Shown one piece after another: positions 26,730-50,291 of a stretch of DNA of 64,000 nt (the first letter of the stretch is position 1; each line of letters starts with the position of its first letter). The translations under genes and the position numbers were made by a program. Origin of the DNA: Candidatus Latescibacterota bacterium (GTDB lineage: Bacteria; Latescibacterota; UBA2968; GCA-2709665); the NCBI GenBank assembly GCA_965222075.1, contig OZ244937.1, forward strand, positions 4,000,001-4,064,000, given 5' to 3'. The notes under the pieces are model-generated. The model saw only the letters and a program-made list of their open reading frames with translations. It searched no databases and was not told the DNA's origin.

Positions 26730-29216
26730 CTATCCCGGATGCCCCTCTCCGTTTGGACCTGCTTCTGCCGAAACCCCCTCCCCACCAAACTCTCCGTTCT
26801 GGAGTACCACACGCGCCACGCCAATCATCCGGTCGTTTTCCTCTAAGTTGATCAGCTTCACCCCCTGAGTGTTCCGCCCGATCACACTGATATCCCGAAT
26901 CGGCAGCCGGATCAGGATTCCCTGCTGGGAAATAATCATCAACTCGTCCTCGTCCACCACCTCTTTCACCGCAACCACCTCACCGTTCCGTTCGGTCGTC
27001 TTGATGTTGATCACGCCCTTGCCGGCCCGCTGTGTGAGCCGATAGTCCGAAACCTCTGTCCGCTTGCCAAATCCATTGGCGCAAACCGTAAGCAGCGTCC
27101 CCTCCCGCCCCATCACCACCATCCCCACCACCACGTCATCCTCTCCCAGCGTGACCCCTTTCACGCCCTGGGTGCCCCGGCCCGTATCCCTCACATTCCG
27201 CTCCGGGAACCGGACCGCCTGGCCCTGCTTTGTCGCCAGGATCACATCGTGTGATCCATCAGTAACCGCAGCCTCAATAAGCCGGTCGTCCTCTAAGATA
27301 TTCATCGCAATAATCCCACCCCGCCGCGGCCGGCTGTAGGCCGAAAGCGCCGTCTTTTTCACCAGCCCGTTTTGAGTAACCTGAATCAAGAAATGGTCGT
27401 CGTCAAACTCCCGCACCGGCACGATGGCCGCGACATTGTGCGCCTTATCGATGTCGATCAGATTCACCACCGGGCGGCCCCGGGCGGCCCGGCTTCCCTG
27501 CGGTATCTCGTGCACCTTCAGCCAGTGGCAGTGCCCCCGGTCCGTCAGGAAGAGGATATAGCTGTGCGTGGAAGCAATAAACAGGTGCTCGACGAAGTCC
27601 TCCTCTTTGGGTTTTACCCCGGTCACCCCTCGCCCTCCCCGGCGCTGGCGCCGGTAGGCGCTCACCGGGATCCGCTTGATATACCCGGCGTGGGAAATGG
27701 TGATGACCATGTCCTCTTCGGCAATCAGATCCTCGATGTCGAACTCCGACGCCGAAAACACGACCTCACTCCGCCGCTCGTCCGCATACTGTTCCCTGAC
27801 CTCCTCAAGTTCCGATTTGACCATCTCCATGCGCTTGGGCCGGTTCTCCAGGATCGAACCGAGCCGCTCGATCTCCTGGATCAGTTTTGCATATTCGTCC
27901 TCGATCTTCTGCTGCTCCAGGTTGGTCAGCCGCTGCAGCGTCATCGACAGAATCGCCTGCGCCTGGCGCTCCGAAAGCACAAGCCGGTCCATCAGCGCCT
28001 TCCGTGCACCGGCCGGATTCGCCGACCCCCGGATGATGCCCACCACAAGGTCGATATCATCCAGCGCCGCCTTCAATCCTTCTAAGATATGCGCCCGGGC
28101 TTCGGCCACCCCAAGCTCGAACCGCGTGCGCCGCACCACCACCTCGTGGCGGTGATCGATATAGCATTTGAGCATCTCCTTCAAGTTCAGCTTCTTCGGT
28201 TGGCCGCCCACCAGCGCAATCATATTCGCAGCAAAGGTGCTTTCAAGCTGGGTGTGTTTGTAAAGCTGGTTCAGAACCACCTCCGAATTGGCATCCCGCT
28301 TCAACTCCACAACAATCCGCATGCCGTCCCGGCCGGATTCGTCCCGGATGTTTGAGATCCCGTCAACCTTCTTGTCGCGGACCAGATCCGCCATCTTTTC
28401 CAGCAGATTGGTCTTCACGACCATGTAAGGGATCTCTGTAACCACGATATTCTCTCGCCCGTTCTTCAAACCCTCAACAAAGGCCCGCGCCCGGACCCGG
28501 ATGAGCCCCTTGCCGGTGTGGTAGGCCTCTCTCACACCGCTGATGCCGTAGATAATGCCTCCCGTGGGAAAATCGGGCGCCTTGACCGACTCCATCAGCC
28601 CGTCTACATCTAAGTCCGGATTGTCGATCAGGGCCACCAGCCCGTCGGCCACTTCGGCCAGGTTGTGCGGGGGAATCGCCGTGGCCATAGTCACCGCAAT
28701 GCCCACCGCCCCGTTGCAAAGCAGGTTCGGCATCCGCGCAGGCAGCACGGCCGGTTCTTCCAGCCGCTCGTCGTAATTCGGCCTGAAGTCGACCGTCTCC
28801 TTGTCGATATCCGCCAGCATTTCATAGCCGGCTCCGGCCATCCGGGCTTCGGTGTAGCGCATGGCGGCGGGAGGATACCCATCGATCGATCCGAAGTTTC
28901 CCTGCCCGTCCACGAGCGGGTAGCGCATTTTAAAATTCTGGGCCAGATGTACCAGTGTAGGATAGACAATCGCCTCCCCGTGGGGGTGGTAATTCCCCGA
29001 CGTGTGCCCGGCGATGTTGGCGCACTTTCGATGCTGCCGGTTAGGCGCCAGCCCCAGGTCGTTCATCGCCACCAGAATCCGCCTCTGGGACGGCTTCAGC
29101 CCGTCTCGCACATCGGGCAGCGCCCGGTTGACCAGCGTACTCATCGAGTAGTCCAGCATGGACTTCTTGATCTCGTCCCCAATATCGACCGGAACAATCC
29201 GCTGTCGCTGCATCAT
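26730..29216 (-). CDS. gyrA: DNA gyrase subunit A
   Basis: [24 protein letters not shown], GyrA-box QRRGGRG. Confidence 0.98.
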
Positions 29217-29336
29217 AGCCTGGTCCTTCTCCCTGTTGTACGTTGGAAGCGAACGGGGTGGATGGGATGGGCCTTTTGCCCCCTGCCCTTTCACCTTACA
29301 AACCGTTATTGCTTTCCCTCACACCACCGCTACCGC

Positions 29337-31334
<1,998 letters not shown>

Positions 31335-31342
31335 TTAGATTG

Positions 31343-31687
31343 TCATGCTTTCCCAAACCGAATCGACCGCACCACCTCCCGGCCGACCGACCGATTGAGC
31401 CGTTCACGGATCCGCTCCCGCTCAAACAAAAGCCGGTGTCGCCAGGCGTCTTGCCTCACCAAAACCCGCAACTCTCCCCGGCGAATCGTATCCGGACGGG
31501 TTACCTGCCCCCCCACCTCCCCGACCACTTCCGCCACAACAACAGGCCACAACAACAGGGCGCGCTGTTCTAAGATCTTGGTCTCGATCCCCAGCTCGTC
31601 AATCACACGCCGCAGCCCATCTCCCAGCGACACCGGAGCCGATGTCCTCCAAACCTCCCACCCGATACTCCGCCCTCGCTTCGCCAC
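31343..31687 (-). CDS. dciA: DUF721 / DciA helicase loader
   Basis: W..VV..VGGQVTRP..I..G.L.V; canonical position between recF and gyrB. Confidence 0.8.
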   Translation of the reverse strand: MAKRGRSIGWEVWRTSAPVSLGDGLRRVIDELGIETKILEQRALLLWPVVVAEVVGEVGGQVTRPDTIRRGELRVLVRQDAWRHRLLFERERIRERLNRSVGREVVRSIRFGKA

Positions 31688-31724
31688 TGCCTGACCTCGC
31701 TTAATACAGTCTGTTATGTTCCCT

Positions 31725-31753
31725 GAGTAAAAGAAAGGTTATTTTCCAAGCAG
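31725..31753. repeat. 29-bp dispersed repeat, copy 2
   Basis: GAGTAAAAGAAAGGTTATTTTCCAAGCAG. Confidence 0.9.
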
Positions 31754-31764
31754 CCTCAAAAAGC

Positions 31765-32850
31765 CTACAACTCCACCAGACGGAAGCCCTGCGCCCCAAA
31801 AGTCAGATCCGGATCCCGGGCCGAGGTGAGCACCACCTGCCCGAAAGACGTGACCAGGTCCATCAGCGAAAGCGCACGACTTCGGTCCAATTCTGAGAAA
31901 ATATCGTCCATCAACAGCACGGGTCGGCGCTGCGTCCGGGCCTCTAAAAAGGCCCCCTCGGCCAGCTTCCATGCCAACAAGACGCTCTTGAGCTGCCCCT
32001 GGGAGGCAAACTGATGCGCCCCCCGCCCGTCCAGTGTAAAAACCAGATTGTCCCGATGGGGACCGCTCAACGTAAACCCCAGGCCCACCTCTTCTGCACG
32101 TCGTTCATCCAGCGCCGAGGCCAGGATCTCCCGGCCCTGGTCCCGTTTGGCGGGTGGCACCAGGCTGCGGTAGACCGTGTGAAGCTGCTCGGACGTAGAG
32201 GCAATCCGCCGATAATACGCTTCGATCATCGGCTGGGTCTCATCCAGCGCGTCCATCCGGTGCTGGATAATCCGCGCGCCGTGCTCGGCAAGCTGCGCAT
32301 CCCAGGGGGCCAGTTGCGCAGGGTCGGAAAGCAGCTGCGTTCGACGGTCTCTCAGGAGTCGATTTCGCTGGGCAAGCACCCGGTAGTAGTGCTTCAGATC
32401 CGAAAGATAGGAGGCGTTCGACTGGGAAACGAGAATATCCAGAATGCGTCGGCGTTGCAGGGGGTCGCGCAGCACCAGATCCACATCTTCGGGAGAGAAA
32501 AGAACAGCGTTGAAGGCGCCAACCAAGCAGGAGAGGCGAGAAAGAGGGTGGTCTTTGAGATAGGCCTTCTTTTTTCCAACACGTGAATCGTATGCAATCC
32601 GAATGGGAAGCGACTGATCTTCGCGTTCCACAACCGCGTCGACACTGAAGTAGTTTGCTCCCCAACGCAGGACGTGCCGATCTTTTGCGCCCCGGCCGGA
32701 CTTGGCAATGGCCAGAAAGTAGATCGCCTCTAAGAGATTCGACTTGCCCCGCGCATTGTCACCGCATACAGCCGTCTTGTCTTTGTCGAAGGTAAATTCG
32801 GCTTGCTCGAAGTTCCTGAAATTCGCCAGCTTAAGCGCCGAAATGTACAA
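31765..32850 (-). CDS. recF: DNA replication/repair protein RecF
   Basis: NFRNF, GDNARGKSNLLEAI, GPHRD, SQGQ, LLMDDIFSELD. Confidence 0.97.
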   Translation of the reverse strand: MYISALKLANFRNFEQAEFTFDKDKTAVCGDNARGKSNLLEAIYFLAIAKSGRGAKDRHVLRWGANYFSVDAVVEREDQSLPIRIAYDSRVGKKKAYLKDHPLSRLSCLVGAFNAVLFSPEDVDLVLRDPLQRRRILDILVSQSNASYLSDLKHYYRVLAQRNRLLRDRRTQLLSDPAQLAPWDAQLAEHGARIIQHRMDALDETQPMIEAYYRRIASTSEQLHTVYRSLVPPAKRDQGREILASALDERRAEEVGLGFTLSGPHRDNLVFTLDGRGAHQFASQGQLKSVLLAWKLAEGAFLEARTQRRPVLLMDDIFSELDRSRALSLMDLVTSFGQVVLTSARDPDLTFGAQGFRLVEL

Positions 32851-32863
32851 GGGAAATCATCCG

Positions 32864-34051
32864 TCAGTCGCTAAGACGAAGCGGCATAAGCAAACAGAGA
32901 TAATCTTCGCCCTCCGGCTGATCCGCGGGTCGGATAATCCCGGCGGTAACAGGACTGTCCAGTTCGAACATAACCTGCTCTGAGTCGATCCGCCGAAGGA
33001 TGTCCTGAAGGTAGGCGGAGTTGTATCCGATCGCCATTTCTTCGTCGTTATAATCGGCCTCTAAGACCTCCCGGGCCTCTCCACCGATCTCCTGGCTGGT
33101 CGCCGAAAGTTCAATCTCATTTGCGTTTAGCCTGAAACGGACCTGGTGATTCTGAGAACTCGACAGAATAGAGACCCGTCGCACAGCAGGCGAAAGGAGA
33201 CTGTTGGAGACCTTCAGCCGTTTTCCATTGGCCTGCGGGATCACCTGTTCATAATCTACATAGGGGCCCTCAATCAGACGGGAGAAAAGGCGTATCCCCC
33301 CGCCCCCTTCCGTCCCATTCGCGCCAGACATCGAGAGGCTGAACATCAGGTGATTCTGCCCAAACTGCACCCGGTCCAGCTTACCCCCCGCCGACATCAA
33401 CTTCACAAGGTGATTGAGCGCCCGGGTCGGAACGATAGCCTCGGTACCCCCGCCCGACGGGGACGCCGGCATCGCTTTGGAATACTTGACCAGACGAGCA
33501 CCATCCGTTGCGACCATGGTCATACGGCCCTCCCCCACCTGCCACAGCACCCCATTGAGCACCGGCCGCGTCTCATCCCTTGAAACCGCAAAGGCCGTCC
33601 TGAAGATCATATCCCGGAGCAGGTGCCCGTCCTCCGACGCCTCGTCCGTTCCGGAAAACGCCATGTCAGGGCCCTCGATTTCCCCGGGCAGATCTGGAAA
33701 ATCGTCTGCAGACACAGACATAAGGGCATACGTCCCCTCAGCGCCCCCCTGCCTCTTTATAGTCACCCGTTCCGACTCGGCGTGCAACTCAACCGCTTCC
33801 TCCGGCAATTCCCGAACGATCTCTGCAAACTTCCGGGCAGGTACCGTTGTCGAACCGGGGACCTCCACCGAGGCCGAAACCCCACACAGAATAGAGATAT
33901 CCAGATCGGTGGCGGAAAAACGTATCCCCTCGGTCTCGCTCACATCAACCAGGATGTTTGAGAGCACCGGCAAGGCCGTTTTGGACGGCACAATGTCTAA
34001 AACGGCGTTCACACCCCTGAGCAATTCGTCCCGATCGATCACAACCTTCAT
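32864..34051 (-). CDS. dnaN: DNA polymerase III beta clamp
   Basis: LPVLSNIL, ATDLD, DETRPVLNG, VATDG, SRLIEG.Y, LLMPLR. Confidence 0.97.
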   Translation of the reverse strand: MKVVIDRDELLRGVNAVLDIVPSKTALPVLSNILVDVSETEGIRFSATDLDISILCGVSASVEVPGSTTVPARKFAEIVRELPEEAVELHAESERVTIKRQGGAEGTYALMSVSADDFPDLPGEIEGPDMAFSGTDEASEDGHLLRDMIFRTAFAVSRDETRPVLNGVLWQVGEGRMTMVATDGARLVKYSKAMPASPSGGGTEAIVPTRALNHLVKLMSAGGKLDRVQFGQNHLMFSLSMSGANGTEGGGGIRLFSRLIEGPYVDYEQVIPQANGKRLKVSNSLLSPAVRRVSILSSSQNHQVRFRLNANEIELSATSQEIGGEAREVLEADYNDEEMAIGYNSAYLQDILRRIDSEQVMFELDSPVTAGIIRPADQPEGEDYLCLLMPLRLSD

Positions 34052-34589
34052 GGTCCCCAACCCCCTCAGCGATAAAAGGCCTTTAAAAGCAGAGTGAATC
34101 TCCCCGCACAAAGCGCGGGGCATCTCAGCTGAGAATGCTCCAGAGCATTCAATATACGCATTCATCCAGAGGCGAGATGAATACAATAATTAAACGCTTA
34201 TGCCAAAATCTCTCCTCTGGTTCTTGCACTGAGCAGTACTGTGTGGCACTACCGCAATTGATTTCCCGCCAAAATCTTCCATGAACCCAAAAAGGGGCTT
34301 AAAACCACCAAAAACAAGCCGCGTTTTCGCCCCCCCTGTATTCTGACGTAATATACTGATTTTTATCGAAGTTGTCAATATATTTTTGCCGATCTATCCC
34401 CCTTTCGGAAGGGGCAAAAATCACACGACAACAATACCCTTATAACCCTGGCCACTGTGATTGGTTCATATAAGATTTTTTACCCGTCTTTTACCATTCC
34501 GTTCCGTTTCCCAAGCCGCGAACGCTCCGCGTCTCCAATACGCCGATCCAATCCATTCACAAACCAGAGGACAGCTGTACATATTCCCA

Positions 34590-48265: not shown

Positions 48266-48377
48266 AGGGAACGCCTGGGAAAGCGAAATTGTCAGGGAGC
48301 AGGAGATACTTTCGGATTTCGGATTGAAGTGCCTCTACTCCGCAATCCACAATCCGCAATTCGGTTGGAGGTGCTGG

Positions 48378-50291
48378 ATGTTTGGACCATACCACAGAAG
48401 GCTCTGGATCGGCCTGATGCTGATTGGGTTGCTGGCTTATGTAACCTTAGATTCAAGGCTGGTTAAGGGCGAAGATGCGTATGCCGCCGTGGAACGAAGT
48501 ATGGACGAGTACGCAGAGACCCTCAAGCTGCTCACACAGAGCTATTTCAAGCCTCTGGAGACGGAGGAGCTCACCACTTCTGCCATTGAGGGGATGCTCG
48601 GCGACCTGGATCCTTATACCCAGTATCTTGGCCCGAAGGCGCTTGAACAGCTCCGGATCGAGACGCAGGGGAAGTTCGGAGGGTTGGGCATTACCATCAG
48701 TTTGAGAAATAAAGTGCCGGTGGTCATGAGTGTGATCGAAGGCACACCTGCGGATACGGCAGGCCTTGTTGTGGGCGACCGTATTGTGAAGATTGAAGGG
48801 CAACCCACGGCCGGAAAAACGCTCCAGGAGGTGGTGGATGTGCTGCGGGGCACACCGGGGATGGGGGTGAGAATTACCCTTGATCGGGCGGGTCGGCCTG
48901 TGCCCTTTGACCAGCTGATCATCCGGGCGCGGATCCGGATTGAGAGTGTAAGGGTGGCTGAGGAGATCGAGCCGGGGATCGGATACATTTCGATGTCGGG
49001 GGTTCTGGGCAGTCGGTTCTCGGAGACGACGCCCCGGGAGTTGGACCAGGCACTCAGGAAGCTGAAGGCGCAGAACATCCGGGGAATGATCCTGGATCTG
49101 CGGGAAAACCCCGGCGGATTGTTGAACCAGGCCGTTGCGGTTGCAGATAAGTTCTTGGGCAAAGGCCAGCTGGTAGTGACCACCAGGGGACGCATGGCCT
49201 CCCAAAACGAGGAGTATCGAACCGAAGAGCCGTCGCTGATTCAAGACACCCCCCTGGTGGTGTTGGTCAACCGCTACAGCGCCAGCGCCTCGGAGATTGT
49301 CGCCGGGGCCATTCAGGATTCGGACCGGGGACTGATTCTGGGCACCCCGACGTTTGGAAAGGGATCGGTGCAGACGGTCAAGTATATCGGAAGGAATAAG
49401 GGCATCAAGCTGACCACGGCCGCCTACTATACACCCAGCGGCCGAAGCATTCACAAGTCCGCGAACGCGAAGCAAGCGCGCGGGCGGTGGCGAGGGATAA
49501 CGTTGACACTTGAGGATACACGTCGGATTTCGGCTTATCAGGTTTTGAGACTCATTGGCGAGGCCGACCGGCGGGAGGATGCACTGGCGGAGCTCAGGGA
49601 AAGGTTCGATTTGAACGAGGAACAGGCAGCACAGGTTATGGATATCCGTTTGGACCAACTTGTGGGCCTGGGGCTGCGTGAGCATGTCGGCGGGCCTGAA
49701 GGGGACGACCCGGAGAAGGCGTTCAAAACCGCGGGGGGCCGCACGGTTTATGGCGGTGGGGGCATTACCCCCGATGTGAAGGTCGAGCCGACACAGCGGC
49801 CGGGGTTGTTGATTGCGCTGGCCAGGGCAGGGCTCTTTTTCGATTTTGCCGTCGATTACGCTGCGACCCATTCTTTTCCGGAAGGGCCGGAGGATTTCAC
49901 GGTGGATGAGGAGGTTGTGAAGGCCTTCCGGGCGTTTTTAGCCGATACCTCAAAGACGGGGGACTTCCACCATCAGACCCTGGGTGAGATTCGGTTGCAG
50001 GAGTTGGAGGAGGCGCTTGAGGAGTCAGACCTCTTCGACGGGGAAGCACGGGGGGCGATGGAACGGTTGCGCGGGGTGGTGGTGGGCGAGCGGGAGGCGG
50101 AATTTGAAAAGGCAAAACCTTATATCCGGCTTGAGATTGAACGTCAGTTGGCCAACCGGGTGTGGGGAGACAGGGCCAAACTTCTGGCCTCTTTAAAGGG
50201 GGACAAGCAGTTTCAGGAGGCGGTGCGGATTTTAAAAGATCCGGAACTCTACAAGAAGAAGATGAACCTGACGCTCGTTTCGATGGAGTAG
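48378..50291 (+). CDS. S41 C-terminal processing peptidase (CtpA-type) with a GyrA-like insert
   Basis: LDPYT, GKFGGLG (PDZ), LDLRENPGG, SASASEIVAG, TFGKGSVQ, YYTPSGR, GGITPDV. Confidence 0.93.
   Translation: MFGPYHRRLWIGLMLIGLLAYVTLDSRLVKGEDAYAAVERSMDEYAETLKLLTQSYFKPLETEELTTSAIEGMLGDLDPYTQYLGPKALEQLRIETQGKFGGLGITISLRNKVPVVMSVIEGTPADTAGLVVGDRIVKIEGQPTAGKTLQEVVDVLRGTPGMGVRITLDRAGRPVPFDQLIIRARIRIESVRVAEEIEPGIGYISMSGVLGSRFSETTPRELDQALRKLKAQNIRGMILDLRENPGGLLNQAVAVADKFLGKGQLVVTTRGRMASQNEEYRTEEPSLIQDTPLVVLVNRYSASASEIVAGAIQDSDRGLILGTPTFGKGSVQTVKYIGRNKGIKLTTAAYYTPSGRSIHKSANAKQARGRWRGITLTLEDTRRISAYQVLRLIGEADRREDALAELRERFDLNEEQAAQVMDIRLDQLVGLGLREHVGGPEGDDPEKAFKTAGGRTVYGGGGITPDVKVEPTQRPGLLIALARAGLFFDFAVDYAATHSFPEGPEDFTVDEEVVKAFRAFLADTSKTGDFHHQTLGEIRLQELEEALEESDLFDGEARGAMERLRGVVVGEREAEFEKAKPYIRLEIERQLANRVWGDRAKLLASLKGDKQFQEAVRILKDPELYKKKMNLTLVSME

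Follow-up and report, generated by a model that had tools for sequence, protein, structure and literature searches.

A GyrA/ParC C-gate-like module inserted in an S41 C-terminal processing protease of Latescibacterota

CtpA of Pseudomonas aeruginosa and CtpB of Bacillus subtilis are S41 proteases in which the region after the catalytic core is a divergent dimerisation region that sets the oligomer and the activity, according to PMC8764530. It is also stated there that CtpA needs the adaptor LbcA, that CtpB is gated by its own PDZ domain, and that the protease-dead form of CtpA is S302A (PMC8764530). For GyrA of Mycobacterium tuberculosis, PMC2923608 gives the C-gate as residues 401-444 and names it the primary dimer interface. 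Here we describe a gene in which these two systems appear to be joined. It lies in a stretch of 64,000 nucleotides from Candidatus Latescibacterota bacterium (GenBank assembly GCA_965222075.1, contig OZ244937.1, positions 4,000,001 to 4,064,000 of the forward strand), which is called the window throughout. Its product is, as judged from the sequence, a CtpA/CtpB-type S41 C-terminal processing protease, an ordinary member of its family with a putative role in the proteolysis of C-terminal tails.

P. aeruginosa CtpA (7rpq) was matched by this protease at E 8e-75 and B. subtilis CtpB at E 4.4e-46 (residues 57-379 of a 655-aa form of the protein; all other residue numbers are those of the 637-aa form unless stated). 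The alignments to solved S41 structures end at the motif YYTPSGRSIH, residue 378 of the 655-aa form. The protease carries its insert at this point, which is the junction where the dimerisation region of CtpA/CtpB starts.

To our knowledge, the C-gate has so far been regarded as exclusive to type IIA topoisomerases. A C-gate module in an S41 protease is a new domain combination, and a prior description of it was not found in the literature searched, with few subscription journals covered. Topoisomerase and gyrase are also unmentioned, as searched by term, in a survey of PDZ-protein architectures (PMC6411480). A paper on a secreted pentapeptide-repeat protein (PMC12864828, EMBO J 2026) was considered as a link between gyrase and CtpA and was rejected, its bearing on CtpA-type proteases being one speculative sentence.

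Likeness of the insert to the GyrA/ParC C-gate

The original prediction placed a GyrA C-gate-like helical segment at 49533-49673 of the plus strand. This segment translates exactly to AYQVLRLIGEADRREDALAELRERFDLNEEQAAQVMDIRLDQLVGLG, inside the open reading frame (ORF) 48324..50291 and between YYTPSGRSIHK and FKTAGGRTVYGGGG, and the GyrA stretch with which it had been compared is indeed present in the window GyrA (26730..29294, minus strand). The two stretches had been said to align without gaps. The same register was returned by hhalign over 47 columns with 26% identity, but as single sequences the two are not alike beyond chance.

The likeness was much clearer when profiles were compared. We aligned 51 relatives of the protease, 46 of which carry the insert, and 27 GyrAs from the same phylum (from 30 sequences, two were dropped because their longest frame was on the wrong strand and one because it was a ParC-like paralogue). 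With hhalign, the 46 inserts matched the 27 GyrAs with Prob 97.4, E 9.6e-12 and a score of 80.3, exactly at the GyrA region of the original prediction. With the profile reversed, E was 0.23; among 40 column shuffles, the lowest E was 0.081 (score 18.9) and the median 0.42. In the reciprocal run, a 68-column profile of the GyrA C-gate was compared with the 637-column protease alignment and matched residues 386-435 with Prob 97.5 and E 7.6e-12. The next best place in the protease reached E 0.062, and the other helices of GyrA and of the protease therefore do not match. The match to GyrA also reaches weakly into the beta-hairpin of the insert. A smaller alignment of 15 inserts built from window and locus DNA only (A3) matched the single window GyrA with Prob 62.7 and E 7.2e-05, again in the predicted register and without gaps. 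These comparisons support the helical part of the insert as a homologue of the GyrA/ParC C-gate.

The original prediction also held that the matched GyrA subdomain contributes to the C-gate dimer interface, and this agrees with the residues 401-444 given for M. tuberculosis above (PMC2923608). In the search of PDB sequences, the insert hidden Markov model (HMM) matched M. tuberculosis GyrA at chain positions 400-446. Since these positions correspond to the C-gate, the matched stretch of GyrA is the C-gate.

The match was also specific. When the A3 HMM was searched against 177,635 distinct PDB sequences, 50 rows were returned at E ≤10, of which 36 belong to GyrA/ParC or to gyrase fusions. At E ≤0.01 there were 22 rows, topoisomerases without exception, the best being S. 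aureus GyrA at 380-427 (E 5.9e-07). The single window insert was compared with 18,950 NCBIfam models, and the top three were gyrA TIGR01063 (6.2e-06), PRK05560 (1.3e-05) and PRK05561 (0.0013). TIGR01063 scored 24 bits on the insert against a cut-off of 877. The window protease is not itself a topoisomerase, as no more than about 45 residues match, TIGR01063 gives 20-24 bits against the same cut-off, and PF00521 is not listed.

Genomic DNA gave the same picture. A six-frame scan of the insert HMM over its own 5.36-Mb genome returned only two matches at E ≤10, the insert itself (3.6e-35) and the GyrA C-gate (1.1e-4). In 61 genomes of the phylum, 72 matches were found at E ≤0.01. Full-length inserts in frames of 626-729 aa made up 26 of these, and 45 were GyrA-type matches at model positions of about 23-72 in frames of 509-900 aa. 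PF00521 matches enclose 25 of the 45 GyrA-type matches, and the other 20 are in genomes outside that PF00521 scan. The sole match of neither protease nor GyrA size was a marginal one (E 0.0096) in a 92-aa frame at G047:C79:21370-21504 on the minus strand. In five genomes of other phyla, all six insert-HMM matches were inside PF00521 matches.

Structure models were consistent with the profile results. In the full-length model (pLDDT 79.3), the module forms helices at 386-395, 399-410 and 414-422 with a short fourth at 425-429. The predicted hairpin before it has strands at 375-378 and 382-385, which are 16-19 and 23-26 in a model of the insert only. The flanks of the insert, 363-373 and 429-440, had pLDDT below 50 and are, going by the model, likely flexible tethers. 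Modelled without the rest of the protease, the insert folds as it does in the full-length model, with a mean pLDDT of 65 and a core of 75-88. All 31 rows listed by Foldseek for the insert model against the PDB were gyrase, the best with E 0.087 and prob 1.00 over 53 columns. Identities in these rows were 28-38% with an rmsd of 3.7-4.1, and none reached E ≤0.001. Gyrase or topoisomerase IV came first in both fold searches (Foldseek and VIA-align), with modest scores. An ESM Atlas look-up with residues 372-435 returned no score of 0.9 or above. With significant and specific profile matches and gyrase/topoisomerase IV at the top of the structure searches, the proposal of a GyrA/ParC C-gate-type module inserted in an S41 protease was supported.

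Another possible explanation is that the likeness to GyrA arose by convergence or chance, and that the insert is a lineage-specific helical linker with a fitting amphipathic pattern. The matched segment is short (about 50 residues) and helical, its 26% pairwise identity to the window GyrA is invisible to BLASTP, and the fold-search scores are modest. We consider this explanation very improbable, since the profile scores are far above those of the shuffled and reversed controls and other helices of GyrA or the protease did no better than E 0.06-0.43 in the same runs. In addition, GyrA/ParC and next to nothing else stood out in three libraries independent of one another, namely the PDB sequences, the NCBIfam models and the six-frame scans of 67 genomes.

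Predicted pairing and alternative readings

Two copies of insert residues 12-78 were co-folded and gave an ipSAE of 0.45, where the highest value among three controls was 0.01. Of 30 proteins whose solved structures are homo-pairs, 20 came up to the ipSAE mark, compared to 1 of 23 whose solved structures are single chains. The co-folding runs agreed in at least 89% of contacts, with a partner pLDDT of at least 66. The tightest predicted contacts were at insert residues 61-67, which would align with R425/R427/R428 of S. pneumoniae GyrA in a mapping inferred from chain positions 387-434 in the PDB profile search. These models suggest self-pairing through the face equivalent to the C-gate dimer face as the most likely role of the insert.

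The same mapping aligns E56, R65, D67 and Q68 of the window insert (A3 numbering) with S. pneumoniae GyrA R416/R425/R427/R428. At positions 56/65/67/68, the 46 inserts most often have E (41%), R (35%), G (28%) and Q (41%), and only position 65 is often arginine. By this mapping, the insert keeps one of the four arginines examined in the C-gate of S. pneumoniae gyrase and lacks the DNA-facing basic patch, which would fit a role away from DNA. The hydrophobic N-terminal helix of the protease (HRRLWIGLMLIGLLAYV) is a probable signal anchor or signal peptide that would place the remaining protein outside the cytoplasm; export is suggested by this N-terminal sequence and by family membership. Because the module is predicted to be extracytoplasmic and has lost three of the four arginines, it would no longer deal with DNA.

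On balance, we lean towards an exported or anchored S41 protease that carries a topoisomerase-derived C-gate homologue as a self-association knob. The protein would run from an N-terminal anchor helix through a CtpB_N-like region, a PDZ domain and a core with Ser303/Lys328 to a C-terminal helical domain. In one clade of the phylum, an autonomous mini-domain of about 65 residues would have been spliced into the variable loop between the core and the C-terminal region. This mini-domain would consist of a beta-hairpin and three to four helices on flexible tethers, with the helical part as the C-gate homologue, and it would have been captured from a type IIA topoisomerase gene and have given up the handling of DNA. 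The knob would pair two protease chains by the face with which GyrA pairs, adding to or reshaping the variable C-terminal oligomerisation contacts that govern CtpA/CtpB assembly and activation. The original prediction had proposed that an exported protease co-opted a topoisomerase module, noting that CtpA-type proteases act as oligomers, and the role so implied is plausible.

Several results weigh against this reading. BLASTP against the window GyrA did not recover the predicted alignment; the best E values were 2.4 with the protease and 5.6 with the 47-mer, and both matches were elsewhere. With phmmer, the single 97-residue insert found four proteins at E ≤0.001 among 1.84 billion representatives, none of GyrA length (638, 266, 264 and 137 aa). 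Five close relatives were all that a word-seeded search of the insert region returned. The Pfam model DNA_topoisoIV reached 4 of the 51 relatives with a best E of 0.032, and the window protein was not listed. The insert model is only of middling confidence. The long coiled-coil helices that flank the GyrA C-gate are absent from the insert, which has a beta-hairpin before its helices and a disordered linker after them. The predicted dimer comes from the excised module only and may be a memory of the many solved gyrase dimers, and the columns of the predicted interface are barely more conserved than others (mean entropy 1.83 compared to 2.00 bits in 46 inserts). The window GyrA is among the poorer GyrA matches to the insert HMM, with 24.6 bits compared to up to 40.3 in insert-less lineages. 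Finally, the insert profile also matched 30 PqqD domains of the phylum in hhalign, with Prob 90.6, E 1.3e-06 and a score of 35.6, where the best of 30 shuffles gave E 0.022.

The last result could mean that the insert is a PqqD/RRE-like winged-helix domain that grips a substrate or adaptor by strand addition and so steers cleavage, with the likeness to GyrA reflecting a deeper origin or a shared helical pattern. PqqD (PF05402) is the top Pfam match of the window insert (E 0.0058), and PqqD models follow the gyrA models in NCBIfam, namely PqqD_rel_X (E 0.0017) and lasso PqqD (E 0.026). Across the full protease alignment, the PqqD profile scores best on the insert (E 2.2e-04, with 0.15 at the second-best place), and the likeness is above that of shuffles. 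The order of a hairpin and then three helices is also what we take to be that of PqqD-type domains. We nevertheless consider this reading unlikely. The scores are below the curated cut-offs (17.4 compared to 23.4 bits for PF05402 and 19.3 compared to 35 bits for the NCBIfam model TIGR04353), and the GyrA score is over twice the PqqD score in the same hhalign test (80.3 compared to 35.6). No PqqD/RRE chain was present in the 50 PDB sequence rows at E ≤10 or among the listed rows of the fold searches, and just 2 of the 51 relatives reach PqqD at E ≤1. Apart from the marginal 92-aa frame, the insert HMM matched no PqqD-family frame at E ≤0.01 in the 61 genomes, even though genes of the PqqD family are present in 138 of 151 genomes of the phylum.

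The PqqD profile was also compared with topoisomerases. Over the full length of the GyrA alignment it scores best at the C-gate (positions 424-465, E 0.0012; next best 0.12), and the C-gate profile matches PqqD (domains of L144-L173) at E 2.9e-05. These sequence matches could point to a remote connection between the C-gate of topoisomerases and winged-helix domains of the PqqD/RRE type. Because the insert combines a retained beta-hairpin wing with matches to the profiles of GyrA and of PqqD, it could be a surviving intermediate from a C-gate that descended from a PqqD/RRE-like peptide-binding module, with the C-gate-like knobs of two chains acting as a reversible latch that gates a self-enclosed proteolytic chamber, in the way that gyrase gates DNA with its C-gate. 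This combined proposal is quite unlikely in our estimate.

The insert could also be a C-gate homologue that does not pair with itself but docks on the PDZ domain, the C-terminal helical domain or a partner protein, for example a lipoprotein adaptor, and would then act as a docking site or as a plug with a regulatory role. LbcA as the adaptor of CtpA and the PDZ gating of CtpB are precedents (PMC8764530). The flexible tethers on either side of the insert (pLDDT <50) suit mobile docking, and the interface columns are not clearly more conserved than others. We judge docking without self-pairing to be unlikely, as the co-folding favours predicted self-pairing (0.45 compared to 0.01 for the best control) and the protease gene has no neighbouring adaptor gene.

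If the insert is a self-association knob of topoisomerase origin, the C-gate would fold and pair as a unit of its own that can be relocated in evolution, and it would be a candidate minimal dimerisation module for study and engineering. The protease would also offer a DNA-free setting for studying what opens or shuts the C-gate. A further mode of assembly would be added to those of S41 proteases, in which activity depends on the oligomeric state (PMC8764530), and this mode would be new. The three-way link with PqqD/RRE is weak, and if true it would bear on the origin of the topoisomerase gate.

Distribution, origin and gene surroundings

With the whole protease as query, 60 of the 61 genomes of the phylum gave a match. 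The insert is present in 46 of the 51 aligned relatives and in 26 of the 61 sampled genomes. The original prediction had allowed that it might be an ordinary variable loop common to S41 proteases, and the survey of orthologs speaks for a conserved insert instead. An ordinary variable loop was rejected: the site does vary (43-55 compared to 95-109 residues), but the insert is conserved and predicted to fold. The 26 loci (families f1, f2, f13 and f4) align over their full length with 95-109 residues between the two flanking motifs, whereas four insert-less loci have 43-55 residues between the same motifs; insert-less relatives carry a short linker at the insert site. A GTDB-wide scan was conducted with the insert alignment plus the flanking motifs (A4) as query. 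Among the matches listed, at least eight loci carry the full-length insert, six of them labelled Latescibacterota or Latescibacteria and two labelled uncultured bacterium. Short linkers were seen in loci of Bacteroidota, Acidobacteriota, Gemmatimonadaceae and other groups. Some database relatives of the protease are labelled Gemmatimonadota. One insert-less orthologue, L058 (G016:C133:2266-3336), has a TAG stop inside the match.

A FastTree tree of the 51 proteases without the insert columns placed the five insert-less sequences in one clade with support 0.999. Under midpoint rooting, in a tree without an outgroup, this clade is nested among insert-bearing sequences, and one gain or one loss of the insert would fit. 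GyrA is present in nearly all genomes searched and the insert is confined to one clade, which suggests that capture went from topoisomerase to protease. A recent copy of the resident gyrA was considered as the source and rejected, as host-clade GyrAs score 23.9-30.2 bits with the insert HMM compared to up to 40.3 elsewhere in the phylum. The insert keeps D.RL..L.GL, and the window GyrA differs at that motif. Since the host-clade GyrAs are the weaker matches and the motif of the window GyrA is altered, the insert would not be a recent copy of it.

The GyrAs of this group showed further features. In GyrA of the window's clade, the C-gate motif is changed from its usual form DMRLQRLTGLE, and in some sister genomes the GyrA alignment shows 6-27 extra residues inside the C-gate, just before the LSE.QA helix (27906-28055, minus strand; L022, L025, L026 and L028). 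A second, shorter topoisomerase IIA A-subunit-like gene with a 640-aa frame (PF00521 E 2e-109) lies outside the window at G000:C1:4128616-4129839 (L031). Of 31 genomes scanned, only the window genome and the five of family f2 were found to have it. The C-gate region of this gene is strongly diverged, and the own-genome scan with the insert HMM gave no match in it.

The gene order around gyrA was also recorded. In the window, dnaN (32864..34186), a recF-like gene (31765..32850), gyrB (29337..31277) and gyrA (26730..29294) are all on the minus strand, 15-21 kb upstream of the protease gene, and this cluster (26730-34186) resembles the surroundings of a replication origin. A distance of 13-30 kb on one contig separates the C-gate match from the insert match in many genomes of the class. 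In one genome of the sister family (G052:C1:1162036-1165654), an 887-aa frame of GyrA size with a C-gate match precedes the start of the protease gene with the insert by only about 1.6 kb, and this putative GyrA frame and the protease seem adjacent. In other members of that genus, the two genes are 20 kb or megabases apart.

The features of the protease gene and of its comparison partner are collected in Table 1. An in-frame TTG at 48324 would give the 655-aa form and begins the ORF in the ORF list (48324..50291). The likely start codon is ATG 48378, as the recorded protein P0004 is the 637-aa form with 100% identity and relatives begin at the corresponding Met. NCBIfam assigns the product to TIGR00225 prc, the C-terminal processing peptidase, with 301.6 bits against a cut-off of 218.6, and Peptidase_S41 matches at E 1.2e-48 (PF03572, 165 bits against a cut-off of 24 in Pfam). 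S303 and K328 are invariant in the 51 aligned sequences. The counterpart of S303 in P. aeruginosa CtpA is the serine that is present in chain 7rpq and changed in chain 7rqh, the position of the protease-dead S302A form (PMC8764530). PF22694 was matched in all 51 aligned relatives. The PDZ_6 match covers residues 115-170, ahead of the S41 core. PF28547 is precomputed for relatives and is not among the local Pfam models; one protein, P0007, has the insert and lacks the C-terminus and PF28547.

Table 1. Features of the insert-bearing protease and of GyrA in the window
Feature	Position	Strand	Residues	Remarks
Whole insert	49455..49751	+	360-458	About 99 residues, between YYTPSGRSIH and GGGGITPD
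Predicted beta-hairpin of insert	49500..49532	+	375-385	GITLTLEDTRRIS
GyrA/ParC C-gate-like helical module	49533..49682	+	386-435	Segment of the original prediction plus three residues
S41 C-terminal processing protease gene	48378..50291	+		637 codons plus stop from ATG 48378
N-terminal hydrophobic helix	48390..48464	+	5-29	Helix in full-length model; preceded by HRR
CtpB_N-like helical region	48474..48629	+	33-84	PF22694, 28.5 bits against cut-off 27
PDZ domain	48651..48899	+	92-174	PDZ_6 E 4.4e-13, PDZ E 6.2e-10, PDZ_2 E 1.5e-09
S41 catalytic core	48978..49457	+	201-360	Pfam match
Ser303 codon	49284-49286	+	303	Within S41 core
Lys328 codon	49359-49361	+	328	Within S41 core
C-terminal all-helical domain	49803..50279	+	476-634	PF28547 CHD_PDZ-protease, about 160 residues; helices in model
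gyrA, comparison partner	26730..29294	-		PF00521 E 4.9e-154; gyrB directly upstream, same strand
C-gate segment of window GyrA	27906..28055	-		Insert HMM E 1.1e-4, model positions 23-72

The neighbours of the protease gene are a thymidylate kinase gene and an aldehyde-dehydrogenase-family gene on the other strand, and no adaptor gene was found among these immediate neighbours. Two antisense open frames overlie the protease gene on the minus strand, at 48453-49871 (472 aa) and 48614-49195 (193 aa), and are most likely artefacts of base composition; the searches gave them no support, none having been aimed at these frames.

Comparison with known systems

With PqqD/RRE domains, the insert shares a similar size and order of elements, strands followed by three helices. 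It differs from them in that only two strands are predicted, and the match is much weaker than that to GyrA.

The GyrA/ParC C-gate (S. aureus about 380-430; M. tuberculosis 401-444) is the top match in both the profile and the fold searches. Its three helices follow one another as in the insert, both fit the profile I..vi..I..a.....A...L...F.L...QA..il...L..L.GL over about 50 residues, and homodimerisation through the equivalent face is predicted for the insert in the models. Unlike in GyrA, the module stands alone in the protease, without the winged-helix domain with its catalytic tyrosine, the tower or the long coiled coil. The insert is also predicted to be extracytoplasmic, in contrast to the GyrA/ParC C-gate.

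With CtpA (7rpq) and CtpB (4c2c), the window protease has in common the N-terminal helical region, the PDZ domain, the S41 core with its Ser/Lys dyad and a C-terminal region. CtpA requires the adaptor LbcA, according to PMC8764530, whereas the window protease has no adjacent adaptor gene. After the insert, it has the PF28547 domain of about 160 residues, to which the solved CtpA/CtpB sequences are unaligned. In CtpA and CtpB, the core motif leads directly into the C-terminal dimerisation region, whereas in the window protease the insert of about 99 residues stands at this place.

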